Shown here in pieces: positions 1 through 48,900 of a stretch of 64,000 nt of DNA. A program made the position numbers and the translations under genes. Positions within the stretch are counted from its first letter, which is position 1; every line of letters starts with the position of its first letter. Source of the stretch: Mobula birostris. Its lineage: Eukaryota. The stretch spans positions 13,578,001-13,642,000 of the forward strand of contig NC_092400.1 in the NCBI RefSeq assembly GCF_030028105.1. The letters are read 5' to 3'. The notes beneath the pieces are model-generated. The model made no database searches, was not told where the DNA came from, and was given only the letters and a program-made list of their open reading frames with translations.

Positions 1-835
1 ACAGGAGAGAGATGCATCAGCTAGTTGAGTGGTGTCACAGCAACAACCTTGCACTCAATGGCAGGAACACGAAAGAACGGAGAGCGGTCTTCAGAAAGGG
101 TAAGATCAGAGAACACCCAACACCCCTCATAGAGAGACCAGAAGTGGAAAGAGTGAGCAAATCCAAGATTCTGAGCATCAAGGTCTCTGAGGACACAACC
201 TAGACCAAACATATCAATGCAGCTATAAAGGAGGCAAGACAGCGGCTATATTTCATTAGAGTTTGAGGAGATTTGCTATGTCACCAAAGACATTTGCAGA
301 TCTTTTACAGATGTGCCGTGGAGAGTATTCTAACTGGTTGCATCCCCGTCTGGTATGGGGAGGGGGGGTGGTGTGCTCCTGCACAGGATCCAAGCAAGCT
401 GCAGAAAGTTGTAAAATTAGTCAACTCCATCATGGGCACTAACCTCCATGGTATCCAGGACATCTTCAAGCAGTGATGCCTCAAAAAGGTGGCGACCATC
501 AGTTAGGATCCCCATCACCCAGAACATGCCCTCTTCTCATTGTTACCTTCAGGGAAGAGATATAGGAGCCTGAAGGCACACAGCCAATGATCCAGGGACA
601 GCATCTTCCCCGCTGTCATCCAATTTCTGAATGGACATTGAACCCATGAATACTTCACCACTTTTTTTATTTCTATTATTTTTGCACTACTTATTTGACT
701 TAACATACAAATGTTTGTATTTTCATATTGTAATTCAGTTTTTTTTCTCTATTATTACATATTTCTTTGTACTGATGCCGCAAAGTTAACAAATTTCATG
801 ACGTAAGCTGGTAGAATTAAACCCGATTCTGATTC
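1..835 (+). mobile_element. Rex/Babar-like LINE 3' fragment
   Basis: [19 protein letters not shown] motif and gattctgattc tail. Its distal part is copied into the tandem units. Confidence 0.8.
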
Positions 836-883
836 ATTAACAGTTTTGACTTCAAGTCCTTTTGTACCTAGATTTGATCTTAC

Positions 884-1057
884 CTGATGCCAATATGCTT
901 TATTGTCTTTGTCTGCCAGTGGAATTTCTGCCAGGTTTTCTTCTATCCATTTCAGATTAGTCTCGATGTAATTCTTAAGCTTGTCACAGTAGGCTGTCTG
1001 ACATTTGAAGGATCCACAGCAGTGAAATAATGTATTCATCCAGTGCACGTAAATATA
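884..1057 (-). CDS. PLBD2: PLBD2 exon 3, copy A (58 codons, phase 0/0)
   Basis: cag|TAT...CAG|gtaag. YIYVHWMNTLFHCCGSFKCQTAYCDKLKNYIETNLKWIEE...AYWHQ resembles PLBD2 LIYMHWMNT..YCGPF...YWHQ. Confidence 0.88.
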
Positions 1058-4000
1058 CTGGAAAACATAATAATTAAAATGTTACAAGAAAATCTGTTTT
1101 AAATTGTGATCAATCATTACTGAACTGGGCAGCAAAATATAACCAAGTCCTGTTTACCCACTTTGATACACGTTGACTTAAATTGACTCAGCAACACCTC
1201 TTCTTTACAATTCTGAACCTTATTTTCAAACTCCACATAGTTGCCAGTAGAAAGGACAGACAGTGGCGTTGGAATCACCGGGTTCAGGAACAGGTATTAC
1301 CTCTCAACCATCAGAATCTTGAACCAGAGGGGATAACTTCACTTGCCTCATCACTGAACTGTTCCCACAACCTATGGACTCACTTTCAAGGACTCTTCAT
1401 CTCGTGTTGTCAATACTCATTGCTTATATTTATTACACTTTTTCCTTTTTGCAGTTGCAGTGTGTTGCCTTTTGCACGCTAGTTGCCTGCCCTGTTGTTG
1501 TGATCCTTCAGTGATTCCATTATGGCTATTGGATTTATTGAGCATGCCCACAAGAAAATAAATCTCAGGGTTATACATGCACTTTGATAATAAATTTACT
1601 TTGAACTTGAAATTTGAACTTTGAATCTCATTCTCGCAGTAACTTTCTCCGAGTCCCCAAATTGCAGAACTCTGCACGTTCTGGCTGCTCAACCACCCCA
1701 GCTGCTATGGGCAAGCCTCCCAACTTCCTTCGCCTCATGCCCACAGTTACTTCGCATCTACGTGGAGGGCCTGTCTCACCGGCACTTTGCATCCCCACGG
1801 CCAACACTTTGCTTTCAATGTCAGTGGGAGCCTCAGGTGAGAAAACCTCCAAAACATCCGATAGTCTTTCAAAGCCAGCAAAGCCGGGTGGGTCTTTGCT
1901 GGCGGTAAACATTAAACTAGGTTTTAAAAGCTTTCAATATCTAACTTTTAGAGACATTTACAAACTAACAAAACAAAACTAAAACTGGAAAATAAGACTC
2001 ATTTGAACTAAATCTTAAGCATAAGACCACAAGATACAGGAGCAGAATTAGACACTCGGCCCATTGAGTCTACTCCACCATTTGATCATGGCCGATTTAT
2101 TATCCCTCTAAACCCCATTCTCCTGCCTTCCCCTTGCAACCTTTGACACCCTTACTAATTAAGAACCTGTCAACTTCCACTTTAAATATACTCAATGACG
2201 TGGCCTCCACAGCCTCTGTGGCTGTGATTCACCACCATCTGGGTAAAGAAATTCCTCCTCATCCTTTTTCTAAAGAGGTGTTCTTGTATTCTGAGGACGA
2301 GCTCATAGGGCCACCTCACAACCCTCTTCAAAATCAATGATCTGCTGATCATTTCTACCCAGGCATGCTCACACCACCTGATAGCTACTGACATCTATCT
2401 CCTCAGATCCTATTTCCACATGCTGACTTCCACCCATCTACCTAGATTGTTGCCTAGTCCTCTCATCAAGAACAGAACTTCCTCTGTGATCTCCACTCCT
2501 ACCACACACAACGCCTAGAGCTGAGCATTTCTGGTCAGATGTTAAGTGTATCTGTACTCGGCACAATGACAATAAAGGTTGAGGGGTAGTAACTCGGCAC
2601 AATGACAATAAAGTTGAATCTAACCTGATATCCAAGCTGAGTTCGGCATACTAAGTATTTTGCATTGACAATGTTACTGACCTTTGCATGGACATTAATT
2701 GAAAATTAAAAGTATTATTCAGATGACTCTAAAAATGCCAAAGTACAATTCAAAGAAAAACAGAGATTACAATCAATACATTCCTTACCAGAGATTACAA
2801 TCAATTTCACAACACTTATGCGGAGCATGGTAATTTCAATGCTACATTTGTCTATGTACCAAGTAAGCACAGTGCAAAGGCACAATGCCTACATATTTGC
2901 AGAAATTGATTAATTTGTTTTGTGTGTGGAACTGCATCACAGCCTGGTATGGAAACACCAAAGCCTGAGTGGAAAATCATACAAAAGGAAATGGATTTTC
3001 CCAGTATACCATTGAGCACACCTACATGAAACACTGTTGTAAAAAAACAGCATCCATCAAAGATCCTCTCCACCTAGACCATGCTTTTTTTTCCTCACTG
3101 CAGCCATCACAAGAGCCTCGGGACTCGCACTACCAGGTTCAAAAAACAGTTACTACCCCTCAACCTTAAGGCTCTTGCACAAAAGAGGATAACTACACTC
3201 GTCCATTGAGATGTTTCCACAACCAATGGTCTCACTTTAACAACTCTTTATCTTGTTATTTCATGCTCTCATTATTTAAAACGCTATTTATTTATACTTG
3301 CATTTGCACAGTTTGTTGTCTTCTATGCTATTGCATTGATCCTGTTTCCAGCTACTATTCCATAGATTTGTTGAGTATGCATGCAGAAAAAGAATCTCTG
3401 GGTGGCATGTGGTGACATGTATGTACTCTGATAATAAATTTTACTTGGAACATTGAACTCTGATGATTCACCACTCTGCTTAGAAATTTCTCATTTCAAT
3501 ACTAAATGGCACCATATTTTGAGATTGTGATTTTCTAGTTCTGGAATCCCTAACTGGGAAATTACTCCACTCTAAGTATTTTTAATGTCCGAATGAGATC
3601 ACCATTCATTCTTCTCATCTCCAGAAAATAGAGGGCCAAGCTTATTCATTAAATACAGCCATACAGACCATAAATTAAATACAGCCATACAGACCAAGCT
3701 GCAGAAAGTTGTAAAATTAGTCAACTCCATCATGGGCACTAACCTCCATGGTATCCAGGACATCTTCAAGCAGTGATGCCTCAAAAAGGTGGCGACCATC
3801 AGTTAGGATCCCCATCACCCAGAACATGCCCTCTTCTCATTGTTACCTTCAGGGAAGAGATATAGGAGCCTGAAGGCACACAGCCAATGATCCAGGGACA
3901 GCATCTTCCCCGCTGTCATCCAATTTCTGAATGGACATTGAACCCATGAATACTTCACCACTTTTTTATTTCTATTATTTTTGCACTACTTATTTGACTT

Positions 4001-4182
4001 AACATACAAATGTTTGTATTTTCATATTGTAATTCAGTTTTTTTTCTCTATTATTACATATTTCTTTGTACTGATGCCGCAAAGTTAACAAATTTCATGA
4101 CGTAAGCTGGTAGAATTAAACCCGATTCTGATTCATTAACAGTTTTGACTTCAAGTCCTTTTGTACCTAGATTTGATCTTAC

Positions 4183-4356
4183 CTGATGCCAATATGCTTT
4201 ATTGTCTTTGTCTGCCAGTGGAATTTCTGCCAGGTTTTCTTCTATCCATTTCAGATTAGTCTCGATGTAATTCTTAAGCTTGTCACAGTAGGCTGTCTGA
4301 CATTTGAAGGATCCACAGCAGTGAAATAATGTATTCATCCAGTGCACGTAAATATA
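4183..4356 (-). CDS. PLBD2: PLBD2 exon 3, copy B
   Basis: Identical to copy A with intact splice sites. Confidence 0.85.
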
Positions 4357-7300
4357 CTGGAAAACATAATAATTAAAATGTTACAAGAAAATCTGTTTTA
4401 AATTGTGATCAATCATTACTGAACTGGGCAGCAAAATATAACCAAGTCCTGTTTACCCACTTTGATACACGTTGACTTAAATTGACTCAGCAACACCTCT
4501 TCTTTACAATTCTGAACCTTATTTTCAAACTCCACATAGTTGCCAGTAGAAAGGACAGACAGTGGCGTTGGAATCACCGGGTTCAGGAACAGGTATTACC
4601 TCTCAACCATCAGAATCTTGAACCAGAGGGGATAACTTCACTTGCCTCATCACTGAACTGTTCCCACAACCTATGGACTCACTTTCAAGGACTCTTCATC
4701 TCGTGTTGTCAATACTCATTGCTTATATTTATTACACTTTTTCCTTTTTGCAGTTGCAGTGTGTTGCCTTTTGCACGCTAGTTGCCTGCCCTGTTGTTGT
4801 GATCCTTCAGTGATTCCATTATGGCTATTGGATTTATTGAGCATGCCCACAAGAAAATAAATCTCAGGGTTATACATGCACTTTGATAATAAATTTACTT
4901 TGAACTTGAAATTTGAACTTTGAATCTCATTCTCGCAGTAACTTTCTCCGAGTCCCCAAATTGCAGAACTCTGCACGTTCTGGCTGCTCAACCACCCCAG
5001 CTGCTATGGGCAAGCCTCCCAACTTCCTTCGCCTCATGCCCACAGTTACTTCGCATCTACGTGGAGGGCCTGTCTCACCGGCACTTTGCATCCCCACGGC
5101 CAACACTTTGCTTTCAATGTCAGTGGGAGCCTCAGGTGAGAAAACCTCCAAAACATCCGATAGTCTTTCAAAGCCAGCAAAGCCGGGTGGGTCTTTGCTG
5201 GCGGTAAACATTAAACTAGGTTTTAAAAGCTTTCAATATCTAACTTTTAGAGACATTTACAAACTAACAAAACAAAACTAAAACTGGAAAATAAGACTCA
5301 TTTGAACTAAATCTTAAGCATAAGACCACAAGATACAGGAGCAGAATTAGACACTCGGCCCATTGAGTCTACTCCACCATTTGATCATGGCCGATTTATT
5401 ATCCCTCTAAACCCCATTCTCCTGCCTTCCCCTTGCAACCTTTGACACCCTTACTAATTAAGAACCTGTCAACTTCCACTTTAAATATACTCAATGACGT
5501 GGCCTCCACAGCCTCTGTGGCTGTGATTCACCACCATCTGGGTAAAGAAATTCCTCCTCATCCTTTTTCTAAAGAGGTGTTCTTGTATTCTGAGGACGAG
5601 CTCATAGGGCCACCTCACAACCCTCTTCAAAATCAATGATCTGCTGATCATTTCTACCCAGGCATGCTCACACCACCTGATAGCTACTGACATCTATCTC
5701 CTCAGATCCTATTTCCACATGCTGACTTCCACCCATCTACCTAGATTGTTGCCTAGTCCTCTCATCAAGAACAGAACTTCCTCTGTGATCTCCACTCCTA
5801 CCACACACAACGCCTAGAGCTGAGCATTTCTGGTCAGATGCTAAGTGTATCTGTACTCGGCACAATGACAATAAAGGTTGAGGGGTAGTAACTCGGCACA
5901 ATGACAATAAAGTTGAATCTAACCTGATATCCAAGCTGAGTTCGGCATACTAAGTATTTTGCATTGACAATGTTACTGACCTTTGCATGGACATTAATTG
6001 AAAATTAAAAGTATTATTCAGATGACTCTAAAAATGCCAAAGTACAATTCAAAGAAAAACAGAGATTACAATCAATACATTCCTTACCAGAGATTACAAT
6101 CAATTTCACAACACTTATGCGGAGCATGGTAATTTCAATGCTACATTTGTCTATGTACCAAGTAAGCACAGTGCAAAGGCACAATGCCTACATATTTGCA
6201 GAAATTGATTAATTTGTTTTGTGTGTGGAACTGCATCACAGCCTGGTATGGAAACACCAAAGCCTGAGTGGAAAATCATACAAAAGGAAATGGATTTTCC
6301 CAGTATACCATTGAGCACACCTACATGAAACACTGTTGTAAAAAAACAGCATCCATCAAAGATCCTCTCCACCTAGACCATGCTTTTTTTTCCTCACTGC
6401 AGCCATCACAAGAGCCTCGGGACTCGCACTACCAGGTTCAAAAAACAGTTACTACCCCTCAACCTTAAGGCTCTTGCACAAAAGAGGATAACTACACTCG
6501 TCCATTGAGATGTTTCCACAACCAATGGTCTCACTTTAACAACTCTTTATCTTGTTATTTCATGCTCTCATTATTTAAAACGCTATTTATTTATACTTGC
6601 ATTTGCACAGTTTGTTGTCTTCTATGCTATTGCATTGATCCTGTTTCCAGCTACTATTCCATAGATTTGTTGAGTATGCATGCAGAAAAAGAATCTCTGG
6701 GTGGCATGTGGTGACATGTATGTACTCTGATAATAAATTTTACTTGGAACATTGAACTCTGATGATTCACCACTCTGCTTAGAAATTTCTCATTTCAATA
6801 CTAAATGGCACCATATTTTGAGATTGTGATTTTCTAGTTCTGGAATCCCTAACTGGGAAATTACTCCACTCTAAGTATTTTTAATGTCCGAATGAGATCA
6901 CCATTCATTCTTCTCATCTCCAGAAAATAGAGGGCCAAGCTTATTCATTAAATACAGCCATACAGACCATAAATTAAATACAGCCATACAGACCAAGCTG
7001 CAGAAAGTTGTAAAATTAGTCAACTCCATCATGGGCACTAACCTCCATGGTATCCAGGACATCTTCAAGCAGTGATGCCTCAAAAAGGTGGCGACCATCA
7101 GTTAGGATCCCCATCACCCAGAACATGCCCTCTTCTCATTGTTACCTTCAGGGAAGAGATATAGGAGCCTGAAGGCACACAGCCAATGATCCAGGGACAG
7201 CATCTTCCCCGCTGTCATCCAATTTCTGAATGGACATTGAACCCATGAATACTTCACCACTTTTTTTATTTCTATTATTTTTGCACTACTTATTTGACTT

Positions 7301-7482
7301 AACATACAAATGTTTGTATTTTCATATTGTAATTCAGTTTTTTTTCTCTATTATTACATATTTCTTTGTACTGATGCCGCAAAGTTAACAAATTTCATGA
7401 CGTAAGCTGGTAGAATTAAACCCGATTCTGATTCATTAACAGTTTTGACTTCAAGTCCTTTTGTACCTAGATTTGATCTTAC

Positions 7483-7656
7483 CTGATGCCAATATGCTTT
7501 ATTGTCTTTGTCTGCCAGTGGAATTTCTGCCAGGTTTTCTTCTATCCATTTCAGATTAGTCTCGATGTAATTCTTAAGCTTGTCACAGTAGGCTGTCTGA
7601 CATTTGAAGGATCCACAGCAGTGAAATAATGTATTCATCCAGTGCACGTAAATATA
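7483..7656 (-). CDS. PLBD2: PLBD2 exon 3, copy C
   Basis: Identical to copy A with intact splice sites. Confidence 0.85.
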
Positions 7657-10600
7657 CTGGAAAACATAATAATTAAAATGTTACAAGAAAATCTGTTTTA
7701 AATTGTGATCAATCATTACTGAACTGGGCAGCAAAATATAACCAAGTCCTGTTTACCCACTTTGATACACGTTGACTTAAATTGACTCAGCAACACCTCT
7801 TCTTTACAATTCTGAACCTTATTTTCAAACTCCACATAGTTGCCAGTAGAAAGGACAGACAGTGGCGTTGGAATCACCGGGTTCAGGAACAGGTATTACC
7901 TCTCAACCATCAGAATCTTGAACCAGAGGGGATAACTTCACTTGCCTCATCACTGAACTGTTCCCACAACCTATGGACTCACTTTCAAGGACTCTTCATC
8001 TCGTGTTGTCAATACTCATTGCTTATATTTATTACACTTTTTCCTTTTTGCAGTTGCAGTGTGTTGCCTTTTGCACGCTAGTTGCCTGCCCTGTTGTTGT
8101 GATCCTTCAGTGATTCCATTATGGCTATTGGATTTATTGAGCATGCCCACAAGAAAATAAATCTCAGGGTTATACATGCACTTTGATAATAAATTTACTT
8201 TGAACTTGAAATTTGAACTTTGAATCTCATTCTCGCAGTAACTTTCTCCGAGTCCCCAAATTGCAGAACTCTGCACGTTCTGGCTGCTCAACCACCCCAG
8301 CTGCTATGGGCAAGCCTCCCAACTTCCTTCGCCTCATGCCCACAGTTACTTCGCATCTACGTGGAGGGCCTGTCTCACCGGCACTTTGCATCCCCACGGC
8401 CAACACTTTGCTTTCAATGTCAGTGGGAGCCTCAGGTGAGAAAACCTCCAAAACATCCGATAGTCTTTCAAAGCCAGCAAAGCCGGGTGGGTCTTTGCTG
8501 GCGGTAAACATTAAACTAGGTTTTAAAAGCTTTCAATATCTAACTTTTAGAGACATTTACAAACTAACAAAACAAAACTAAAACTGGAAAATAAGACTCA
8601 TTTGAACTAAATCTTAAGCATAAGACCACAAGATACAGGAGCAGAATTAGACACTCGGCCCATTGAGTCTACTCCACCATTTGATCATGGCCGATTTATT
8701 ATCCCTCTAAACCCCATTCTCCTGCCTTCCCCTTGCAACCTTTGACACCCTTACTAATTAAGAACCTGTCAACTTCCACTTTAAATATACTCAATGACGT
8801 GGCCTCCACAGCCTCTGTGGCTGTGATTCACCACCATCTGGGTAAAGAAATTCCTCCTCATCCTTTTTCTAAAGAGGTGTTCTTGTATTCTGAGGACGAG
8901 CTCATAGGGCCACCTCACAACCCTCTTCAAAATCAATGATCTGCTGATCATTTCTACCCAGGCATGCTCACACCACCTGATAGCTACTGACATCTATCTC
9001 CTCAGATCCTATTTCCACATGCTGACTTCCACCCATCTACCTAGATTGTTGCCTAGTCCTCTCAGCAAGAACAGAACTTCCTCTGTGATCTCCACTCCTA
9101 CCACACACAACGCCTAGAGCTGAGCATTTCTGGTCAGATGTTAAGTGTATCTGTACTCGGCACAATGACAATAAAGGTTGAGGGGTAGTAACTCGGCACA
9201 ATGACAATAAAGTTGAATCTAACCTGATATCCAAGCTGAGTTCGGCATACTAAGTATTTTGCATTGACAATGTTACTGACCTTTGCATGGACATTAATTG
9301 AAAATTAAAAGTATTATTCAGATGACTCTAAAAATGCCAAAGTACAATTCAAAGAAAAACAGAGATTACAATCAATACATTCCTTACCAGAGATTACAAT
9401 CAATTTCACAACACTTATGCGGAGCATGGTAATTTCAATGCTACATTTGTCTATGTACCAAGTAAGCACAGTGCAAAGGCACAATGCCTACATATTTGCA
9501 GAAATTGATTAATTTGTTTTGTGTGTGGAACTGCATCACAGCCTGGTATGGAAACACCAAAGCCTGAGTGGAAAATCATACAAAAGGAAATGGATTTTCC
9601 CAGTATACCATTGAGCACACCTACATGAAACACTGTTGTAAAAAAACAGCATCCATCAAAGATCCTCTCCACCTAGACCATGCTTTTTTTTCCTCACTGC
9701 AGCCATCACAAGAGCCTCGGGACTCGCACTACCAGGTTCAAAAAACAGTTACTACCCCTCAACCTTAAGGCTCTTGCACAAAAGAGGATAACTACACTCG
9801 TCCATTGAGATGTTTCCACAACCAATGGTCTCACTTTAACAACTCTTTATCTTGTTATTTCATGCTCTCATTATTTAAAACGCTATTTATTTATACTTGC
9901 ATTTGCACAGTTTGTTGTCTTCTATGCTATTGCATTGATCCTGTTTCCAGCTACTATTCCATAGATTTGTTGAGTATGCATGCAGAAAAAGAATCTCTGG
10001 GTGGCATGTGGTGACATGTATGTACTCTGATAATAAATTTTACTTGGAACATTGAACTCTGATGATTCACCACTCTGCTTAGAAATTTCTCATTTCAATA
10101 CTAAATGGCACCATATTTTGAGATTGTGATTTTCTAGTTCTGGAATCCCTAACTGGGAAATTACTCCACTCTAAGTATTTTTAATGTCCGAATGAGATCA
10201 CCATTCATTCTTCTCATCTCCAGAAAATAGAGGGCCAAGCTTATTCATTAAATACAGCCATACAGACCATAAATTTTAAGCTTCCTGGCCTTTTGATCTC
10301 CCTGCTTTGGTCAGCTCTGGCTCACAAACATCAAATGCTTATTTGGTATTAACCATCCAAGTAGAAAGTCAATGTGTTTGGGACAGGTGTCAGGGTCAGA
10401 TTTAGTTTCAATACATCACACTGCAGGATAATCTAATAGTCTAATTTATAAAGAACTGTTAAAGAGTAAAGGCAGGGAGATCTTTCAGAACAAAAGTGAC
10501 ATGCAGAGTCATTTGGAGAAAAAAGTTTGCATTGGTTATAGCAGTCCATTGGTATTAAGTTGCCAAACAAAATGTCTGATTTACTTACATTTAAAATGAA

Positions 10601-10804
10601 CAATTTATAACAAAAATATCTCTAACATCTTCAGTTTCCACTAATAATCTAAGATAGTTGCCCAATGCCTTGATTGTGAAATAACCATCAAAACACTACT
10701 CAGTTTTTTTCTAGTCAATACAACTCTTGAAGCACTTCTAAATACTTCTTGACGTCTTTTCTTTCACGGCAAACGAGAATCTGAGAGCAATTAGTAAAGC
10801 TTAC

Positions 10805-10898
10805 TGGTCGTGTGACCTCAGCTTCCAGCACTCCTGCAGCATAAGCCTGAATTCTATCATCATACGTCCCATTTGTACCAAGTTCAAGGTAGGACCAG
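10805..10898 (-). CDS. PLBD2: PLBD2 exon 2 (94 nt)
   Basis: tgtag|C TGG...CCA|gtaagc. WSYLELGTNGTYDDRIQAYAAGVLEAEVTRP resembles PLBD2 WAFLELGTSGQYNDSLQAYAAGVVEAAVSEE. Confidence 0.92.
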
Positions 10899-11289
10899 CT
10901 ACAGAGGACAGAAAATGTAAAGTAAATAGAAGCTAAACATACTGAATGAAAACAGAAAAGTATATGAATCATCAACAATTGCAAGATGGCAAAAACTTAA
11001 ATCTACTATATTTTAAGATAAACACATGTCCTTAATGTTAGAGTTTAAACATATGCATGCATGTTTAACCTTGCATAATATACCTTATTTAGAGACTATT
11101 AAATGATTTGTGGAAACAGGCACAGTTAATTTATAAGTCGTCAGTCTTCCTCTCTTCATCGATCAACACTAACACTCTCCAGCCCTCTTCCCATCTAGAC
11201 TTATCCTATCCCCTTTCCCCAACCCTTTTCCCATCCAGCCTTTTGCCTCCAAATGGATCCCTCTCCAGACCCCTGAACACCCATCTCTG

Positions 11290-11905
11290 CCACTCATTCC
11301 CTACCCACCTCCCCTGCCCCCAAGGCCCACCCCCACCTCCCCGCCCCCAACACCCACCCCACCTCCCCTGCTCCCGACACCCGCCCCCACCCCCGACACC
11401 CACCCCATCTCCCCTGCCCCCAACGCCCACCCCACCTCCCCTGCCCCCGAGCGCCCACCCCCACCCCACCTCCCCTGCCCCCCAGCGCCCACCTGCCAAA
11501 CTGCCACCCACCACGCCGCCTGCCCTACCCACCCATCACCCACGCTGCCTACCCTACCCCAACAAGCAACCACTCCCCTCCCCACCCCACAGGCGTCCAC
11601 CCCCACTCCGTGTGCCCTGTCCTACTCTCCACGGGCGCCCACCTCCCACCCTGAACCCCCCCCAACCACGCCTGCCCTCCCGAGCGCCCCCCCCCCACCA
11701 GGGCCCACCCCCACCCCCGGGCATCCATCCACCACCCCAACTCCTCTGGCCTCGACACCCAACCGCACCCACCTCCCCCTCCTCTATCCCCAAACCCACC
11801 CCTCACCCCCATCTACTCCTCGTGACCCTACCGGTACCCGCAGCCTACTTGTTCCACACTCTTCTTACCAACCTACCTGCCCTACCCACCTACCACCCCA
11901 CCTTC
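11290..11905. repeat. C-rich low-complexity tract (G-rich on the PLBD2 sense strand)
   Basis: Repeated cacccc/cacctcccctgcccc-like units. Confidence 0.9.
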
Positions 11906-11911
11906 CTTTCT

Positions 11912-12058
11912 GCCAGAGCGGTGCAGCGTCTCAGGAGCCGCCAGAGGCACCACTGCCAGCAGCGACAACAACAACAGGACATGACAAGCAGCCACTCAGC
12001 AGGAGGACCGGTATTGGATGTGGCACCGAGGTCCCTCAGGGCAGCAAGCCACCGCCAT
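11912..12058 (-). pseudogene. PLBD2: PLBD2 exon 1 remnant (signal peptide interrupted by an in-frame TGA)
   Basis: AACATGGCG start at 12058 reads MAVACCPEGPRCHIQYRSSC*, then VAACHVLLLLSLLAVVPLAAPETLHRS in the same frame. The expected AVAWANxTN..G segment and a clear phase-2 donor were not found. Confidence 0.6.
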
Positions 12059-12470
12059 GTTGGACCGGCGCATCAGCTGACGCCGGTGAATGATTGACAG
12101 CCTGGTGCGCTGGCGACCGAGCGAAAGTCCGGCTCCTCACTATATTTGCCAGATGCTAGTCATTTGCATATCTGTATCGTCACGTGAATGTATATGATCA
12201 TTTGCTTGAGCTTTCATGGAGCGTTATAGCAGCATATGGAATATTTCGAGTAAGTCACGCAATTCTATTCGGGGATAGTGCCGAGTCTCATTGATTGGAG
12301 GTCCGTGAAATGACCTTTCATTCAAAGCGCGTCTGCTTCAATGCGTGATGGTTTCACGTTGGACCGAGTCGCAGCTGGGAGCAAAAACTGAGCCAGTGCG
12401 GCTCTCGCTGTCTTCTTGAACCCCCGCGCATTAATTGGAATGAACTGATTTAAATAGGGGGAGGGCGAGG
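12052..12470. promoter_or_regulatory. Putative bidirectional PLBD2/SLC8B1 promoter
   Basis: CpG-richer region between divergent ATGs (12058 on -, 12935 on +). YY1-like CCGCCATGTT at 12052, octamer ATTTGCAT at 12162-12169, GTCACGTGAA at 12179-12188. A candidate 5'UTR donor GTAAGT at 12250 pairs with the acceptor ttttag at 12920. Confidence 0.6.
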
Positions 12471-12934
12471 AAGTAATGAGTTGGACTGAGAGGTTATTAG
12501 TGTTTTTTTCTGGGGGGAGTGTGAAGTGGGTTGGTCGGCCAGTACTCCTGTTACCTTTCAAGAAGGAGGAAATAACATTACGTATGGAGAACAATTTGCT
12601 AAGGGGATACATTCTGATTTACTTGATGTAGAAATGTGAACCTGGAAGTTTAAATTTCTCCTTTACTTTTAGTTATTGTATTTACTTCCTGGTTTAAGTA
12701 CTGGGGTTTCAGACTGGAGCTATAGCATGGTTTTATTTTTTTAAGTCGTTTGAGCAAATTGAATATGTCAGCTGTTTCTACATTCGCGATAGATAGGTTC
12801 CCTGAGTTTATTTATGTCATGATAGGGAGAGTTTCTTGGGCGACTTCCTAATCTTCTGGCTAATTAACGCAGAGCGGTAACCGCAAACTGAAAGAGTGCT
12901 GATTCGAGTTCTTCTTTTAGACTGACCCACGGCA

Positions 12935-13132
12935 ATGAAGGCAGGCTGTGTTACTGTGATCGCCTGGCTTCTCTGGCTGAGGACTGCGAAGTGTTACGCA
13001 CCCCAGTCCCTGGGGACTCCCGATTCACATCGCTTTAAAAACGTTGCTGGAATAATTGAGCCCCGTTCGTCTGAAAATACTGTTAACACAAGCTCTCTTG
13101 GTCTGCTTGAAGCGACTAGTTGGTCAATTGAG
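12935..13132 (+). CDS. SLC8B1: SLC8B1 coding exon 1
   Basis: GCAATGA start. MKAGCVTVIAWLLWLRTAKC...SWSIE|gtacgt, phase 0, matches the next exon. Confidence 0.72.
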
Positions 13133-16100
13133 GTACGTCTTCTCTGTCTTGACCTAAATGTAATCTTGGGTACCCTGAAGTCTGTCTTTTAAATTTTATC
13201 TCTCTGCACTATTCTTTAATGGATTAATTTCGTGAGTTAGTAGGCAGCTTAATGTTTCCCCATCACTAGCTTGCATTTTCTCCATTCTGATTTTCATCAC
13301 CTAATTGAAGTTGGAAATGAGTTTTGATTTCTTACAAGCAATCGTGTAATTTTTTTTTAATATCCTCCCCTGTTAATGTAAGGAGCAGCCGTTTCCTCTG
13401 GTGTTGCTGGGTATGGTAGTGCTCTTCCCAAATTGGAAAAGATCACGAGGCTGTCACTTCAGCGAAGCAGTGAGGGTGTGCTTTTATAAAATGTCCCTTG
13501 AGTGGAGGCATTGAAAGTGCTATTTGCAGAGTGTGGGGAAGGGGGTGTCCTGCTCAATGCCCCCCACTACCCAGGCCATGCTCTCTTCTGCTTCTGACAT
13601 CTGGAAGGAGGTACAGGAGCCTTTGGTCCCAAACCGCCAGGTTCTGTAATGGTTATTACCCCCAACTATCAGGCTCCTGAACCAGCACGGAAAATTTCAT
13701 TCACCTCAACCCTGAACTGATTCCACAACTAATGGACTCGCGTTCAAGGACTCTACAACTCTTGTCCCAGGTATTATTTAATTTTAATATATGCAGCTTG
13801 TTTTCTTGTGCACATACAGGTACTGAGTCTAATGTATTCTACTGTGAATACCTGCAAGAAGATGAATCTCTGGGTGCCATATCTGTGAACTTTGAACTTT
13901 ATGCTAGTCAGCATTTCCGTCTTTCCATGTTAACTTTGTGGGAGTAGAGGATTTAATCTAATATTGGGGGTAAGGTGAATAATTTAGCCTAAAGCACTGA
14001 TTAAACTTTGTTTTCTTAATCCTCACAATTAGTAACCAGGTCAATTATTGGCACTAATTGAACTATTAAACCATTTTATCTAAAGCCAGTGGTGGGCAGA
14101 CAGCAGTATACCACTAATGTTCACAAAGATTTGAATTTTGTAAGCATCCTGGTTGAATACTGTCAAAACACTCTTCTCTTGGTCGTGATTTTTGCGCCAC
14201 TCTTTGCAGATGTCCTAGACTGTTCAGTTCTTGATGACCATAAATATTCCAAGCTCCACTGTTTAGTGAGTCAAACTATAAACAAGTTGATTTCCTCTTG
14301 AAGTAATGAGATAACTTGTTAGGCCTGGTTCTGTAAAAGTGTTTTTAGCTGCTTGTTATCTGTCTACAAAAAAAAAGTTTGCCAGTTACTAAGCAGCAGC
14401 CTCATTCCAGTAATATTCCTTCATTAATGAGCAGCATATTAAAACAAAAAGTCCTTCTGTAACCACACCCCTTGGCTGGCTGAACTTTGCAGCTGTGTTA
14501 TGTTACTTTGCTCTGGTTGTACAGAGGGTAGTGCTGCTGGTTCACAGCTCCAGCGACTTTGGTTTGACCCTGAGCTTAGTGCTGTGTATTTTCTCCAAGT
14601 TCTCCCCATTCCCCTCACCTCCTTAAAAACTTGTATGGTTAATTAGCTACTGTAATCATTGGATTTGGGTTGGAGTTGATTGGCATTTATATCAAATTAA
14701 TTAGCGTGCTGGTTTCCTAGTTTAAGCAATCTGATTAACGTGTAGGCAGCTGGCTATATTAATTATGCTAAAGTAAGGAATGTCAAAACTAAATTGCATG
14801 GCATCCCAAAGTATCAGCAGGAAAGTTTTTTTTCCCCTTGCAAGTTTTAGTACTTCAATATCTGCTAGGAGTTATCCAAAATTTATGTACAGCGTATTTT
14901 TTAAAATCTTAATTGGTATCATTTCTATTAGAGTCTTGATCTGAATGTCCCGTTTAGTTAAAAATGACCATTTTGTTGCATTTTTCTTAGCCTCTGGACA
15001 TTGACTGAAAACTATTTTCAATGAAGTGAAGTCTGGCAGTCAACTTTCACACAGCAAAGTCCCTCAGACTGGACTAAACCTGAACAGGATATATCAGCTG
15101 GTTGAAGACCACCCAATGCTTCTCACCTCTTTGAATGTTGTTTCATCTCCTGGATATGGGGGGACCTCATAGAAACATTTCAAATGTTGAAAGGCATGGA
15201 CAGAGTAGATGTGGCAAAGTTGTTTCCCATGATGGGGGAGTCTAGTACGAGAGGGTATGACTTAAGGATTGAAGGGCGCCCAGTCAGAACAGAAATGCGA
15301 AGAAATTTTTTTAGTCAGAGGGTGGTGAATCTATGGAATTTGTTGCCACGGGCAGCAGTGGAGGCCAAGTCATTGGGTGTATTTAAGGCAGAGATTGATA
15401 GGTATCTGAGTAGCCAGGGCATCAAAGGTTATGGTGAGAAGGCAGGGGAGTGGGACTAAATGGGAGAATGGATCAGCTCATGATAAAATGGCGGAGCAGA
15501 CTCGATGGGCCAAATGGTTGACTTCTGCTCCTTGGTCTTATGGTTTTATGGTCTTATGAATGTGAAAATTCACCTTCATCCCCCGATTGCTGCACAGTAG
15601 TGACTTGCTGAAAGTACTTGGAGTGAAAATTCTCACTGGTGCAGGAATATGATAATAAAATGGATGCATTTTGAGCAAACTTAAATTTGACCAGAACACA
15701 TGTTATGCGTCATCTTTAAGGAGTTCAGCAAACTCTCTTGTCTTGCTCTTTGGGGAGGCAGAAAAACAAATCCAAACTCAAATCCTGTTGTCTGAGCACA
15801 ATGATTTGTAAAGTGGAGACTTTCAATATGGACAATATTTAACTTAAACGTATATAAGAGTTGCTAACTTCTCTCTGATATTGTTAAGATGCCCCTATCT
15901 TTTTAGCAACATGGTCGGCAGTCAAAGTTGACAGCAACGATGCATACATCAAGATGTTCAGCATTTAACCCATCGTATAGATATTATTGCAAAGAAAGCA
16001 TGACCATGCCTCTATTTCCTCAGGAGTCTGGGGAGGTTTGGCACGTCAGCAAAAAAGCTTGGTGAACTTCTATAGATGTGAGGTGGAAAGTGTGCTGACT

Positions 16101-19100: not shown

Positions 19101-22100
19101 TCAGAAACAGTTGTGATATAGCCTAAATTCTGAGCCGGCTAAGCCCCCGATACAAAGGGAGGCCCAATTAATATCAGGATAATTAAAATCCCTCATTACG
19201 CTAACATTGTTGGTTTTAAATCTTTTCACGAACTGCCTGCATGCATATTTGCTCCTCGGGCTTTTGGGAGACCTTCAGTATAATCCCTTCACTGTGATTG
19301 CACTTTTTTAAAATTCCTGGCGTCTACCCATGTGTTCTTGCTGGATGAGCCCTGCACTGCATCTTTTCTCATTGCAACTGTAGCATTCTCCCTAATCAAT
19401 GACACAACTCAGCTATCATATCTGCATCTACTCTACTCTAAAATATTGAGCTGCTAATTCTGCCCTTCCCTCAATCTTTTTATCTGTAATACCCAGAACA
19501 TGTGCTAAACCAGACTCCATTCTCATCTGCTTTTTCTAAATAAGGACACTTTAGATTGTCATTCCCAAAGTTTTCCTTGACTTGCCTCTTGTCTGCTCTT
19601 CCTAGTAGACTTGACCTAACCTCTACCTCCCCCTCAATCCTTCCACTTGGTGATTCACAGCCTGGTTCCGACCCAGCTCTACGCCAGTTTAAACCCTCCC
19701 AAGTACCACTAGCAAAGCTCACTGCAACAATGTTGATGCCCCTCCAGTTTGGGTGCAGAGTGTGCTTGAACAAGTCATCTCCTTGCCTTGGAATGAATCC
19801 CAATGATCCAGGTATCCGAAGCACTCCTTGCATTTTCTTATTTCTGCCCTTGCTAGCAGCAATCTTTTCAAAATACAGTATTTAAAAGCTGTATCTTTAA
19901 TCCACTTTGCTATGGGTTTTGTGCTCTCCTTGCTGCTTTCTCCCCCTAATTTGAGCTCCAATAACTCTTGGCTAATTGTACTCAGTTTCTTTTTAAGGCC
20001 TCAACTGTTAATTTGTATTGTACAGAAAATGCTGGAGGAACTCAGCAGGTCAGGCAGCATCTATGGAATGAACAGCAAGTTGATTTATTTCAGGCTGAGA
20101 CTCCTCTTCAGTCCTGATGAAAGGCCTTTGAAAGGTCGACTGTTTACTCTTGCCATAGATGCTGCCTGACCTGCTGAGTTCCTCCAGCATTTTGTATGTG
20201 TGGCTTTGGTTTCCAGCATCTGCAGAACTTCTTGTGTTTATGATCTGTATTGTGTTCGTGGGCATTGCCCCTTAATCAGTAAATTGAATTATGAACAGAT
20301 ATTTCTTGGATTGATACAGTAGTTCACACTTTCTAAAAATGGCTGCCTAACCTTAATCTCATCTTGTGAAGATTATTTTCAATGATCACACATGGTTTAG
20401 ATGCATGCTGCGTGAAAAATAGCAGATCAGTCGTTACTGTGAGTCTTAATGCACAAATTTGTGATGTTCAGAAATATCCCAATAGTGAATTTATCAGTTA
20501 ATACGGCTGTTTAATGTACAATTATCATGAACTGATCTTGCTGTTGATTATGTGATTTGCTGTGTACAATCACTTGTAGCTGTGTGGGTTTGCAAGATTT
20601 ACATTAGAACCTTGTCGGTTCGATTTAGAGTGGCATAGAAACTATTTAAACCACTTCTGCTTCCTTTTCACATTGTGTTATCGTCAATGCACTCTTCTCA
20701 TAACCTATTTTAGAGAAGTATTAAACCAATTTTTCTTGGCTTTGTACTAGTGCCAGTGAACAAAATACATGGGTTGTAAAATAGGCTAAAATGCGGCTGA
20801 TGGTATTAATTTGTTCTGGGCTATGGATTTGAATTTCTACTAATGTTTGATATCAAATTGTAAGACATTTAAATGAAGGCACTGAATGAAGCACTCTACT
20901 GATTAACATCATTTATACTTTACACAGGCTGTTTGGTTGTTCTACCTATTCATGTTCCTTGGAATAACAGCTGAAAAATTGTAAGTTTTGTCTTTCGGCA
21001 TTTAATCTTGAATCTTTCACTGACACTTGCCTACTAAGTTCTCAAAGTAACTGTCAGTTTTGTGCTCTATATTATTGAAATTGATTCTGAATTGTGTCTT
21101 TAGTGGTGTTCACGCTTCATTTTCTGGTAAAACTTTACTTTCCCATCCCTTTTAAAAATAAAGATGCAAATGTAGCATAGTTGAAGACAATTAACTGAAG
21201 TGAGGTATCAGAAGCTACTTGGACTTCAAAGTAGAGATGTCCCTCCAGCCCAAAGCAAGTTACCACTGCACAGTATTTCCAGGCTCCAGCATATGAAGGA
21301 CAAAGTTCTTTATGTTAGAAAAAGGTACTTGCCCTGTGTTCTGAAACTTGTGGCAGTGAGTTGTTAGCCAATTATTCTAGATTTTGGTGAGATTGCAATC
21401 CATTTCCTTCACAATGCGTTTGTCTGTTCTGCAGCCCCAAATGCTAAAGTGATTGAAGTAAAGGGGGAGCTGAATATTTCTGCTGACGCACTCTGTCTCT
21501 CCCTGACCTTCAGCAATAAAGTGATAAAATGTGTAATCATACCATTCTGTATTTGGCATTTTCATCAGTCTTTCTGTGCTCTCCAAATATTCTGATTATA
21601 AATAAATTGAAAGTTGTTTTTCTTGGAATATTCTTGAAGTTAAATCCAGAGTGACTGGCACCATAACTTTTCTGTAGTTAGTTGGCACATAACAGCAAGT
21701 GCTATTTAATGAAAGTATAGATTCTCCCATTTTCCCATACACTAGCAATTTTTCAATGTTATGATCATAAATATCAAGTCTAATTATTTTGCTTCTCCAG
21801 CTTTTGTCCAAACCTGGCTGCCATATCTACAAGTTTAAAGTTGTCACATAATGTGGCAGTATCCTTTATGCCTTGAATATATTTAATGAGTGATAATTGG
21901 TTGTATTGGGTGAGCGCAATCTTTGAATGGCATGTTAAGCTAGAACTAATTTTTGTGTTCTAGCTGGTAATGTTGTCACACCTACACATCTAGATATTTG
22001 CATTTGTATAAAGGAAACAACCTGACAGAATGAATGGTCTCAAAATAGAGTTTATATTTGGGGTTCAAAATATCAATATTACCTGGTTCTTGGCTCAGAT

Positions 22101-25100: not shown

Positions 25101-28100
25101 TTAAACAGCTTTGAAGTTTCCCATTATCATTAACGTCACTAAAACCCCAGAGAGCGCTAGGAATACTTGGGCCAGGCACCATCTTTGCAGAGTGAATGCT
25201 GCTGTCTGGACTTGAGACCCTTTGGGAACTCAAAATGTTAAATTTGTTTTTGTTTCTGCCCCCTTTCTTTGTATCTAAGTATCTGAAGGTGGAGTCAGAC
25301 TGATTTCCACAAGTGGTGGGGGCTGAAAGGGTGTGAAGATGTAAAAAATCAGATTAATACAAGACTTTGCCTTTACTTTTTTCTGCACCCTGAACGTGTT
25401 ATTCAGTCTGTCTCTACCCTTTCTCAAACTAATTACTCCACATCTACTCTTGCCCTTTCAAGGATAAAGTTAGAAATCGAGCAGGTTTCCTGTTAGTGAA
25501 AAAATCGTTGTGCTAAAGCATTAGTTCTGTTTGCTGAGTGTGTCCAGTACTGTTTCAATATTTGATTACTATTTTGCCTTTTGATCAATGTGTCATTGTT
25601 AAGTGTTAGAATTGTTCCATGGTTTTGAAATTGCCCAGTCCATGATCCAAACCATCTTCACTCCTGGTTGCATCGTGACCTGGTGTAGAAACACCAATGC
25701 CTCTAAACAGGACGCCCTCCAAAAAGTAGTGGGCATGGCCCAATGCATCATGGGTAAAGCCATCCCCCACCATTGAGCACATGTACGTGAAGTGCTGTCA
25801 CAGGAAAGCAGCATCCATCATCTGGGACCACACCACCTTGGTCGTGTTCTCCTCTTGCTGCTGCCATCGGGAAGAAGGTACAAGAGCTTCAGTGCCCACG
25901 CCACCAGGTTCAGGAACAGTTATTACTCTTCAGCCAGTGTGGCTAACTTCACTCATCCCATCACTGAGCTGCTCCCACAACATACGGACTTGCCATTTAT
26001 TTGTATTTGCGCAGCTTGTCCTTTGAACACTGATTGTTTGCCCATCTTGTTGGGTGCAGTGTTACATTGCTGGTTCTTGGATTTACTGAGGATGCCCACA
26101 AGCAAATGAATCCCAGGATTGTATGTGGTAATATTTATACACTTGATAATAAATCTACTTTTAAACTTTGAACGTGCTGCCTCTCCTGAATTATCTGCCT
26201 GCCAGCAAGATTTCTGATATTCCGCTTAGCTGCTAGTTGGCTGAAGATCAAGTTAGAGGAGGTTTTTCTTCAGTTTCGTGGTAATCAGTGCAGTTAAATA
26301 TTTGTCCAATATCAAACGCCTTGTATCACTTCCTCTCTTCGCACCTAGGGCAAGCCCTTCTCAATTAATGAGCAAGTGGGTCAAACATCTGTGCACTGAC
26401 TGTTTTGAATGGATAACCTTGAAATCAACCTTCAATTTATGATATCTTTGGTGTCTCTGATGTGAATTGTTACAGTTAAGAAATTGTAAGATTATTCCTA
26501 TTGGACTGCATCTCAATTTTCACTAACTTTTTTTACTCAAAGAAACACTATTTAACTATCGTGGGTTTTTATTTTAAAGATTTTGACATCTGTATCACTT
26601 ATCCTTGACTGGTTTTATTTATGGTGTAACTTTCCTTGCCTTTGGTAATGGAGCTCCTGACTTATTCAGTGCAATTGCAGCCTTTTCTGATTCTAGAACA
26701 GCAAGCCTGGCAATTGGAGCTTTGTTTGGTAAGTCGCATATTTTCTGCATTACTTTTTAATTGTTTTGTTGATCGCTGGTCATTGCCTTTAAAGTTCATT
26801 TTGGAGAAGTTGCTTGACCATGATGTCATCTTTGCTGGGAAGTGACCAAATGAATCATGTATCAGAGTGGGAAGCAAATTGGATATGTCAGTGGATATGT
26901 CAGTGGTTATGGAAAAGGGCATAGAGCTTACTGTCAACCACAGTAAACATCTTTCTTTGCAGAAAGGCCATTTGATTAGCATGTGAACAGACCTGACTCA
27001 GAAATACGACTCTAGGATCAATGGGTGGACAACTAGGGCTGGATGGCTATTGCAAATATTATTCCCATTAACAAGTGCAGAGACTGGTATTATGTTTTGT
27101 AACTCCAAAAGAAAAGGGGGGGGGGAAACACAGGTGCTGGGATACTTGTGTATACTTAGTTTCGCTTTGGTGAGGCAAGCACATATGATGTGGTGAAGTA
27201 GTGATGTATGCCACTCATGTACTTTTATATATAACCACTGAATTATGTAAACAAAAAATGGTTAATCAAAATGTGTTGATAATACTTTGGCTGTCCATCG
27301 ATGTTTCAATGTTGACTGAGGCCTGGGCAAGGTTGTATGGAAGACTGGCAGTTGCCCATGCTGCAAGTCTCCCTTCTCCACGTGACAACAGCGGTGCCAA
27401 GCTGTATGGGTCCTAGTGCCCTTCCCTCGGACAACATTTATAATACTAATTGATTATTAAATACACCATACTACTACTCAGCACTACTAACTACTCCAAT
27501 ACTGAATTCATTGCTCACAGTGCATTCTTTAGACTCTGGGCAAATATTTCCGCTAGCGAAACGCACTACGCTGACGCTGAATCAGAAGCTTGCCGATTTC
27601 CTCCTTGCGTATCACAACGCAGCACACTCTGCGAACGACAACTCACCAGCTCTGCTGTTCCTGAGCCGCCCCTTGCACTTAAGCTTGGATCTTCTCAAAC
27701 CCAATCTCAGGAGGAGTATGCAGGACAAACAGCTGAGGCAAATTGAGGGCTCCTCAAACGAGATTTAACCCTTAGCTTAAAGAATTCACACTTGTCGCGT
27801 CATGCTGTGAGCCCATAATCTTCTAATCTTTTTAATGACGTCTTGAGATTTTGGAAATATTCCTTAACTCATCACCGCTAACGATGTCATCCAGTGAGCG
27901 ACTAGGCAGCCTTGTAGCTCCAGATCTATAACTTTCTGCCAGAGTACAGGTGCAGATTCTACTCCAAAAACAAGCCTATTATGGTGATATAGCCCTTTGT
28001 CTGTTGATGTTGAGAAACATTTTGGACTCCTCTTTCTCCGTGTGTAGGTAGGCCTCAGCGAAATCTACTTTGCTGAAGTGTTTCCCTCCAGAAAGGTTTG

Positions 28101-45715: not shown

Positions 45716-45955
45716 ACGCAAACAACAGGAATTCTGCAGATGCTGGAGATTCAAGCAACACACATCAAAGTTGCTGGTGAACGCAGCAGGCCAGGCAGCA
45801 TCTCTAGGAAGAGGTACAGTCGACGTTTCAGGCCGAGACCCTTCGAAGGGTCTCATGGGACAATCTAACTATTCTATATAGACATGCATGATCAAGCTTG
45901 TAATTCACTTTGAAAACCTGAGAAGAGGAGCTCCAATTTACAACTTTGATGTGTG
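45716..45955 (-). mobile_element. Truncated Penelope-like insertion with captured host DNA, 14-bp TSD
   Basis: TSD ATACTATTTTAATA at 45702-45715 and 45956-45969. 45853-45943 is identical to 46548-46638. Confidence 0.8.
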
Positions 45956-48900
45956 ATACTATTTTAATATTCTGGATAACCTTGAAAATAAACCAAAACT
46001 GTTAATGTCTGTAAGGTTATCGTTAATATTTTGCACATCTACTTGAATTAATCTTTTTTGTCAGCATCTGCCTGGCCAGGTATTTCTTTCTGTATGTGCA
46101 GTGCTATTCCAGGTTCAGACACAGTGTTTAAGTTAAAAATTGAATTGGTTTGAACTGTCACATTGGTGAAAATGTTATTGTCCAGATTTATGGCTGTTGC
46201 CTATTTTTGATGTAAATTTGAGAAAATAGTAAGCTTGGTCCCTGGAATCTTGAGTCAAATAATGCTCGAGTATTATTTTTTTTCTGTTTTGCTGCATTTT
46301 TGGCAGTCTACAAGAATATTTTGTTACTGCTACTGTCAGAGAGTTCCATCGTTAAATGGAAAAATATGCCTACAATGAGAATTAAGCTGAAATTAAAATG
46401 TAAGCAGAGGGCACTGAAGAGAAATTACTTAAAACACAGTAGCCAAAGACAATTCAAATAATCTTCTGTTTTCTCCTTTTGAAACTACAACAGGTAACAA
46501 CTCCTTGATCACTCAACAAATGTTATATATTGATGTAATATAATTATTCATGGGACAATCTAACTATTCTATATAGACATGCATGATCAAGCTTGTAATT
46601 CACTTTGAAAACCTGAGAAGAGGAGCTCCAATTTACAAAAATAAACTCTAATTACTTTCTGCATAAAATTAGTGCACTTGTTTCTTTGTTTTATTACAAA
46701 AACACAATTTGGTGAACATTGGAACTCTGAAAACAAATGCAGGAATTAGTTTGGTCAGCCAGGTTAGATTAAGTCCAAGTATTTTTTGTTAAAGAGAGAT
46801 TGATGGCCTAATCTAAAAGATTAGCTCATTCTCTCAATTTTAATTAATGTGAATAGTTCAACATTGCAATGGTTGGTCTGTCAAATGCTGCCGACTTGGT
46901 GTACTATATGAGAAGTGTTTGAGGGCTCTGGGTCTGTACTCAGTTTAAAAGGATGACAGGGGATCTCATTGAAACCTATTGAATATTAAAGGGACTAGAA
47001 TGGACACAAATAAGTTTCCAATAGTGGGAGAGTTTAGGACCAGAGGTCACAGCCTCAGATAGAAGAACATCCCTTTCGAACAGAGATGAGGAGGAATTCT
47101 TTAGCCAGAGGGTGTTGAATTCATTGCCATAGACAGCTGTTGAGCATGTCTCATTGGGTATATTTAAAGTGGAAGTTGATGGATTCTCGAATAGTAAGGG
47201 AGTCAAAAGTTACAGGGAGAAGTTAGGAGAGTGGGTTTGAGAGAGAAAATAAATTAGCCATAATCGCATGGCAGAGTGACTCAGTGGGCCAAATGGCCTA
47301 ACCCTGTTCTTGTGTTTTATTCTCATTAAACTCCTCAAATAAAAACTTATAAATTGTTATCACTAAACTATAGCACATATTTAAATGCTTAATATGTACA
47401 AACCCAACTGTAATTTTAAGGAATAACCAGACAATTATTAGAATTGTGCTTTTTAGTTTAGTGTGGGGCTAGCCCTCTAGACCTTGGGTCAACTTTTGCA
47501 AGTTTTGGTTCTCTGCAGGAGAAGAATGGAAATTAAAATTTGATGTATGTAAGTACATAATTAAATATTAATAGCATTCATTTACCATTGAAATTTGTTT
47601 AAATATTTAAAGTTGAATTGCAGCTGAACTGATCCTTTCAAGTGACAATATACAATATTACTTTGGGACTGCTGACATAGACAATGACTGGATTAATACT
47701 TGAGGTTAATAGTCTATCTATTGATATCAACAACAAATAGATACTACTACAGCAACTTCACAACGATGCTTAAAGCAGTATTTATCACATGGTGGATAAA
47801 CTACAAGGGTAGTTTTAATCTGTAATGTGTTCCTATTACAATAATTTTAAATTAAATCATTTTTCTATAAATGGTATAGACAAATTAGGCAGACAGAAAT
47901 CCTGTTCCCATTCAATATAGAATGCAAGTGACTCTCAAATGCGACATGAAGATTTTACATTGTGAGGTGAGAGATTGGAATCTGGAATACAAAACCAGGA
48001 TTAAATGATTCAAAAAGGAATTGGTAAGTATCCAAAAGGGAGAACATTTGCAGGGCCATGGGGATAAGGCAGAGGAGTGGGACCAACTAAATTGGTTTTG
48101 CATGGACTCCCCATAGCTCTTAATCAGATCAACAAGACTGTCGATGCTGGGACCTGGAAGCTTGAAAATAAAACAACAAACTGCAGGAGAGACTCAGCAG
48201 GGTAGCTAGCATCTGTGGAGGCAAAGGAATAGTCAATGATTCAAGTTGAGTCCCTGTGTCAGGACTGAGGGAGGATAACTAGTGTAAATGGGAGAGGGAC
48301 TGGTGAGGCAGTGGCTGGTAAGGTGATGACTGGAGTGAAGGATTGTGGGCAGATGGAGCCATGTGGCAGAGGGATAGAGTTGGGAGACTTCCTATGGGTG
48401 ATAGATGGAAACAGACAAAAGAAAAGGGCAAGAAGATCTTGTTTGGGGGTGGGTGAGGTAGAGTCAAGCTGGATGCACGAGAGGTGTGAATACTACATAA
48501 TCGACATCCTTCCTGAAACTAAGGTTATTCTTGGAAGACACCCTTTTAGTTTTTGTTACTATATGGCAGGAGTAAAGAAATTAGACCCACATCATTTTTT
48601 GTTTAAAAAAGGTATGTCTTTGCAATTACAATTTACATTATAAGGCAGTGGTCAGACTGCCTTTGGTGTACTGTGAGCAGATCTGGGCCTCTTGTTTAAG
48701 AAATGATGTGCTGGTATTGGAGCGGAACTGGTGGAAATTCATGAGAATGATCCTGGGAACGAAAGGGTTTATGTATGACAAGTATTTAATTGCTCTGGGC
48801 CTATGCTTGCTAGAATTTAGAAGACTGAGGGGGAATTTCATTAAAACCTATTGAATATTGAAAAGGCTAGATACTGGACATGTAGAACAGGTTGTTCACA

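Follow-up and report, generated by a model that had tools for sequence, protein, structure and literature searches.

What does it mean for a gene that one of its exons stands three times in a row? The question is raised by PLBD2, encoding a lysosomal hydrolase, in the giant manta ray Mobula birostris, where a stretch of 64,000 nucleotides of contig NC_092400.1 (hereafter, the window) carries exon 3 of the gene in triplicate. A first-pass annotation of this DNA, made from the letters alone, saw a very recent in-frame triplication from which splicing could include one to three copies of a Cys-rich segment. The reading favored here, to which we assign a probability of about 0.8, is that a recent neutral 3.28-kb tandem amplification took place within an already dysfunctional, transcribed, and probably unitary PLBD2 pseudogene of the giant manta lineage. 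In a dead gene, tripling of exon 3 would be of little consequence, and it is the gene loss that matters more.

Structure of the Array

Self-BLAST of the window returned a single large direct repeat, spanning 395–10275, which global alignment resolved into three units: U1 at 395–3676 (3282 bp), U2 at 3695–6975 (3281 bp) and U3 at 6994–10275 (3282 bp). The three near-identical units of about 3.3 kb described in the first-pass annotation are therefore confirmed. Their differences amount in total to two substitutions and one indel, with pairwise identities of 99.94–99.97%; U1 equals the consensus of the three, U2 has lost one T from a homopolymer and carries a T>C change at 5841, and U3 carries a T>G change at 9065. 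So few differences support the recent origin that had been claimed for the array. At the left edge (394/395), an interspersed repeat, labeled a LINE in the first-pass annotation, continues across without a break, and to the right of 10275 the sequence turns unique. The remnant of this repeat in intron 3 (1–838, plus strand, delimited by alignment to other copies) contains the left breakpoint and aligns at 73–74% to two further copies in the window; a Pfam search with one other copy gave no match. The two edges bear out the statement that there are exactly three copies as far as the assembled array is concerned.

Each unit holds one copy of PLBD2 exon 3 on the minus strand, at 884–1057 in U1, at 4183–4356 in U2 (by global alignment) and at 7483–7656 in U3. 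The copies are identical, each of 174 nt (58 codons) with phase 0/0 and AG/GT splice ends, in agreement with the original description; symmetric phase and intact splice sites are a trait of functional tandem exon duplications, and three exons 3 in series remain open and in frame. The identity of gene and exon is supported by a match to residues 89–140 of the mouse Plbd2 chain (E = 2e-13), and homology to PF04916 and to the Plbd2 structure was found.

Origin of the Junctions

That the two internal junctions are identical had been observed before and is upheld; both also contain an 18-nt insert that had gone undescribed. Insert 1 (3677–3694, plus strand) is templated from 3651–3668, and insert 2 (6976–6993, plus strand) is identical to it. 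The window contains the sequence in five places: the two inserts, and one site close to the end of every unit, where the template stretch stops 8 bp short of that end in every case. Microhomology is present at both switches, with 3 nt at the jump back and 2 nt where the sequence passes on to the start of the unit. An insert identical to junction-adjacent sequence, accompanied by microhomology, is what end-joining duplication is expected to leave. Templated insertions are a hallmark of end joining by polymerase theta, a pathway that in worms is also a source of tandem duplications (PMC7368036).

In the manta, microhomology-mediated end joining may have mended a break while switching template twice, a repair that would have duplicated exon 3 with its flanks and left the 18-nt templated insert behind. 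A scar much like this one is also expected from template switching during replication, and sequence cannot tell the latter from end joining. Since two identical complex junctions point to a single event and unequal crossover, the third unit with the same junction would have arisen by crossover between two-copy alleles. One duplication followed by unequal crossover, as first suggested, thus gains support from the identical insert-bearing junctions, which would make this locus a clean germline example of a templated-insert duplication and its later expansion.

Presence and Copy Number

Contigs of four sequencing runs were placed on 6976–13575. X1 is DNA of organism A, which matches the window, and X8 is DNA of organism B, a relative; X9 and X10 were taken as RNA by guess. 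The one DNA sample of organism A is possibly that of the assembly itself, and X9 and X10, filed under another study code, may come from the same animal, as may S3 and S4. X8 differs from the window at 139 of 5536 aligned bases (2.5%). In X1, one contig stops at 10275 and the next begins at 10246, an overlap of 30 bases, as would be expected if the assembly graph forked at the junction base, whereas an X8 contig (10023–11468) passes the array edge unbroken. Reads of organism A contain the duplication and those of B show no sign of it, contigs showing presence and not absence. The joint from 10275 to 6976 was not among the 15 joints listed, with 912 more on record.

Estimation of copy number from contig depth was attempted and dropped, as depths of 3–6x cannot separate 1, 1.5, 2 or 3 copies. 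The animal may carry two or three units, or be heterozygous, and copy number may be polymorphic, as the first-pass annotation suggested. The alternative that survives best grants that the duplication is real and makes the third unit an assembly over-expansion, or the animal a heterozygote (e.g., 3/1 or 2/1). We regard this as unlikely, while giving it some weight. It would sit well with the near identity of the units, one of whose few differences is a homopolymer indel, with the absence from the X1 contig of the G specific to U3 at 9065, where X1 and X8 both read T, and with a unit-to-flank contig depth of 1.6–2.0 in X1, below 3 (1.0–1.3 in X8). However, contig depth is no copy number, and because contigs keep majority letters, a T at 9065 is expected where two of three units have it. 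This alternative is compatible with the pseudogene reading. An array of 9.9 kb is short enough to be spanned by long reads.

Lesions in Exon 1

The remnant of PLBD2 exon 1 (11915–12073, minus strand) has start codons at 12073 and 12058, an in-frame stop at 11998–11996, and a cut end at 11915. The stop replaces an Arg of P0006, the M. hypostoma protein, and precedes the hydrophobic leader segment; no in-frame Met follows it, and no frame is open from a start codon through the leader. The exon has also lost its last 34 codons, corresponding to P0006 residues 61–94, together with its splice donor, and without these residues the alpha fragment is incomplete. An AlphaFold model of P0006 (mean pLDDT 63.5, poor in the C-terminal part, and used only for secondary structure over residues 56–198) places the lost residues in strands 56–63 (in part), 70–74 and 82–89, and several of them are conserved in 104–118 of about 120 homologues.

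The X1 contig that covers this region (10246–13575) differs from the window by one other letter and eight gap letters. The stop and the breakpoint are both spanned by an X10 contig (11896–12030) with no differences, and by X9 with one other letter, at a position not given, and no gap. In X8, contigs end at 11914–11916 with 57 and 82 loose letters, and organism B carries about 109–112 bases more than the window there, against 101 coding bases missing. Behind the deletion lies a cluster of candidate cryptic donors (11886–11902, minus strand), of which the one at 11894 fits a RefSeq model of 144 aa. The frame of an out-of-frame ATG at 11982 continues into exon 2 if the donor at 11894 or 11897 is used. 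Exon 2 itself (10805–10898, minus strand, 94 nt) is intact.

Cryptic Exon, RNA, and Gene Models

Each unit carries a further exon, of 183 nt, derived from the antisense strand of the interspersed repeat. The U1 copy of this cryptic exon (444–626, minus strand), seen in RefSeq models, has a stop at 549–551; the U2 copy (3744–3926, minus strand) has it at 3849–3851 and the U3 copy (7043–7225, minus strand) at 7148–7150, its codon 26. The donor of the cryptic exon reads GT, where each of the three further repeat copies within the window reads GC. Contigs of both presumed RNA runs terminate exactly at 7043, a splice site of the cryptic exon, and an X9 contig begins at 7225 with 30 loose letters ahead of its start. 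The exon 3 interval of U3 is covered exactly by record 27 of X9 and record 10 of X10, in the latter run as a stand-alone 174-nt contig, which suggests that exon 3 has several splice partners on each side. Exon 3 joined to the cryptic exon reaches a stop at codon 84, and a shorter, 103-nt form of the cryptic exon would shift the frame. X10 contig depth is 45.2 over exon 3 and 14.3 over exon 2, which fits three inclusions per transcript, but depth of this kind cannot rank parts of a gene; likewise, the lack of X9 cover of exon 2 in the bin 10716–10935 was given no weight. RNA from the locus would appear to use cryptic exon-1 donors and the stop-bearing repeat-derived exon behind exon 3. We propose that, as a result, the locus yields no lysosomal enzyme and selection does not act on the array.

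Transcription of the remnant may be driven by a promoter shared with a head-to-head neighbor, the first two exons of which lie at about 12363–12492 and 12921–13132 (12363–13132, plus strand). The spliced plus-strand transcript of this neighbor (X9 record 31) begins some 300 bp away from the start of PLBD2. An exon of SLC8B1/NCLX at 26602–26730 (plus strand) probably belongs to the same gene; SLC8B1 is presumably also found beside PLBD2 at the human locus.

RefSeq enters the locus as two protein-coding models. A protein search near the length of exon 3 gave no match; at greater length, 10 candidates were scored and 5 matched. Inside the window, the translated exons agree at 100% with three RefSeq model sequences of M. 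birostris. The 144-aa model comprises exon 1 in a different frame, exons 2–3, and a repeat-derived end, while the 492-aa and 434-aa models start within the same repeat. The two protein-coding models are probably pseudogene fragments.

Apparent Decay of the Coding Sequence

Exon 3 of the window differs from X8 at four positions (codons mapped by hand), giving three replacements, M>V, Y>C and Y>C, and one silent change. The derived residues are common to all three copies, X8 retaining the ancestral state. Of the four Cys in the exon, two are thus products of Tyr>Cys changes, one of them at a Tyr kept by 120 of 120 homologues, and the remaining two are the equivalents of mouse C147–C157, which form a disulfide (PMC2739207). 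Compared in this way, the Cys-rich look of the segment is damage, which counts against the in-frame Cys-rich protein proposed earlier.

Exons 4 onward, which lie outside the window and were taken from the RefSeq model P0009, are open. P0009 keeps the N-terminal nucleophile Cys and the Asn-bearing motif of the beta fragment, and shows a Ser>Gly change two residues before the Asn taken as mouse N432, a numbering obtained by inference. Changes polarized to M. birostris fell at near-invariant sites (at least 95% conserved in 109 bony-vertebrate homologues, over 459 columns) in 6 of 10 cases, positions 207 and 222 having been removed before the count as not polarizable; the conservation alignment was made without P0001, P0007 and P0023. 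In five control pairs, 31 of 298 changes were at such sites (Fisher p = 3e-4), and the share expected under neutrality is 48%. Such sites took 3 of 9 changes in the closest control pair and 1 of 5 in M. hypostoma, values indicating that a pooled control of longer branches inflates the significance. A plain relative-rate test, with 11 versus 6 changes, was not significant (p = 0.33).

Taken at the level of sequence, the locus appears to qualify neither as a functional PLBD2 nor as a functional exon duplication, a category for which the host gene would have to be able to make protein. It shows two features of unitary pseudogenes, one being disabling mutations in the coding sequence and the other intact orthologues in relatives. 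Full-length proteins of 579–589 aa are found in M. hypostoma, Hypanus, Hemitrygon and Pristis, and the orthologues P0006, P0002, P0008 and P0003 are full length.

Extent of the Probable Loss

The odds lean slightly toward a species-wide loss of PLBD2 in the giant manta lineage, with no second copy and with the congener keeping the gene. That the lesions are instead private to one animal or haplotype, as a segregating null allele, seems improbable. Organism A is represented by a single DNA sample and by RNA that may be from the same animal, which would leave room for such an allele; however, ten derived changes, added to the stop and the deletion, point to a long period of relaxation, and the ancestral allele was not seen in three runs.

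The idea that this locus is a dead duplicate, with an intact PLBD2 elsewhere in the genome, is more doubtful again. Contigs can lose minor variants, and a second copy could escape notice in that way. Yet the ancestral letters of exon 3 were at zero depth in X1, X9 and X10, and the neighboring gene is SLC8B1/NCLX, as it presumably is at the human locus. A five-member protein cluster holds only two M. birostris models, both truncated. Of 1542 matches, the 120 listed include no further protein from M. birostris.

Literature searches, incomplete in their coverage of subscription papers, found no report of PLBD2 loss in M. birostris, and the main text of the TOGA2 preprint makes no mention of PLBD2 or Mobula. 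If a species-wide unitary loss is the correct reading, nature would have knocked out a vertebrate-conserved lysosomal hydrolase in a way not reported before, and the exon 3 array would be a copy-number marker inside a dead gene. With the gene recently lost in one Mobula lineage and intact in a congener, the two could be compared by profiling their lysosomal lipids or peptides.

Probable Order of Events

Only two substitutions have accumulated among 3 × 3282 bp, and the derived residues are present in all copies, so that loss of function most likely preceded the array. In exon 1, the nonsense codon would have arisen and a deletion would have removed about 110 bp along with the donor, and replacement changes would have built up at conserved sites, before exon 3 was duplicated. 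The age of the array comes to about 1.6% (0.2–5.8%) of the branch that follows the divergence from organism B, an estimate that ignores gene conversion and consensus error. It is very unlikely that the duplication itself killed the gene and the other lesions came after: repeating exon 3 along with a stop-bearing exon could inactivate a gene by itself, but two substitutions between units, or this small fraction of the branch, would then stand against 10 derived amino-acid changes, three of them in all copies. As a separate point, gene conversion among the units could conceal an older age of the array.

A neutral loss of PLBD2 is plausible, since knockout mice reportedly show no lysosomal disease and no substrate of the enzyme is known (PMC9140057, citing unpublished data).

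The original proposal, that splicing includes one to three in-frame copies of exon 3 and gives a variant protein, is scarcely credible, since exon 1 upstream has a nonsense codon and a deletion and each unit brings a repeat-derived exon with an in-frame stop, at the sites of which RNA contigs end. The route left to it, with the tripled exon open and the downstream exons open in P0009, is re-initiation at ATG 11982 and use of the donor at 11894 (or 11897), with all cryptic exons skipped; however, the product would be without its native leader and residues 61–94, and the boundary of exon 3 cuts through the middle of helix 175–198 of the P0006 model. No exon 3–exon 3 join is present in the three M. 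birostris RefSeq model sequences or among the 15 joints listed (912 more exist), and none of 124 homologues (124 of 125 had a match) repeats the segment.

Comparison With Known Systems

Antisense retroelements can be exonized, as in the case of Alu-type poison exons. The cryptic exon of the manta is like these in its antisense acceptor, its GC>GT donor, and the stop within the exon; it differs in coming from an interspersed repeat of a ray and in having been amplified along with a true exon.

The 66.3-kDa lysosomal Ntn hydrolase PLBD2 (PF04916; mouse PDB 3FBX, 3FGR) is the standard against which the locus itself is measured, exons 1–3 being homologous to its 28-kDa (alpha) fragment. Compared with a normal PLBD2, the manta locus has a stop in the leader, 34 codons deleted, exon 3 tripled, and a stop-bearing cryptic exon added. 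The array resembles the polymerase theta tandem duplications with templated insertions described in PMC7368036, sharing with them a kilobase-scale head-to-tail duplication, short microhomologies, and an insert copied from junction-adjacent sequence. In contrast to those cases, the manta event is germline, occurred in a ray, and was expanded to three units, and the enzyme responsible is not readable from the sequence. Lastly, as unitary pseudogenes are defined in PMC8381491, the locus is like transcribed members of the class in having disabling mutations in a formerly coding gene, intact orthologues, and continued transcription. The manta case differs from them in that the absence of a second copy is supported indirectly and in that RefSeq gives the locus two protein-coding models.

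Surroundings of PLBD2 and Repeats in the Window

PLBD2 lies head-to-head with a neighboring gene, the first two exons of which fall within 12363-13132 on the plus strand; its transcript is spliced in the presumed-RNA contigs and is followed downstream by an NCLX/SLC8B1 exon (26602-26730, plus strand). Approximately 300 bp of CpG-rich DNA separate the starts of the two genes. Between the two PLBD2 start codons (12058-12073, minus strand), the leader in the window is six codons shorter than that of P0006, the M. hypostoma protein. Intron 1 is low-complexity and G/C-skewed at 11200-11900, with tandem repeats of 27-73 bp; this stretch adjoins the exon-1 deletion, directly behind it, and is likewise carried by contigs of the related organism B.

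Elsewhere, self-comparison of the window revealed an exact 91-bp duplication, with copies approximately 700 bp apart (45853-45943 and 46548-46638). There is also a short MITE-like element with 41-bp perfect inverted arms (20021-20201), with a related end near 60983-61030, and an LTR retrotransposon pol-region remnant (57800-60000, plus strand) containing an integrase zinc-binding domain (PF17921) and broken into several short frames.

Conserved-Site Changes in Other Rays

Changes at highly conserved PLBD2 sites were also found in the stingray pair P0002/P0008 (3 of 9) and in M. hypostoma P0006 (1 of 5), and a milder relaxation may extend across myliobatiform rays.
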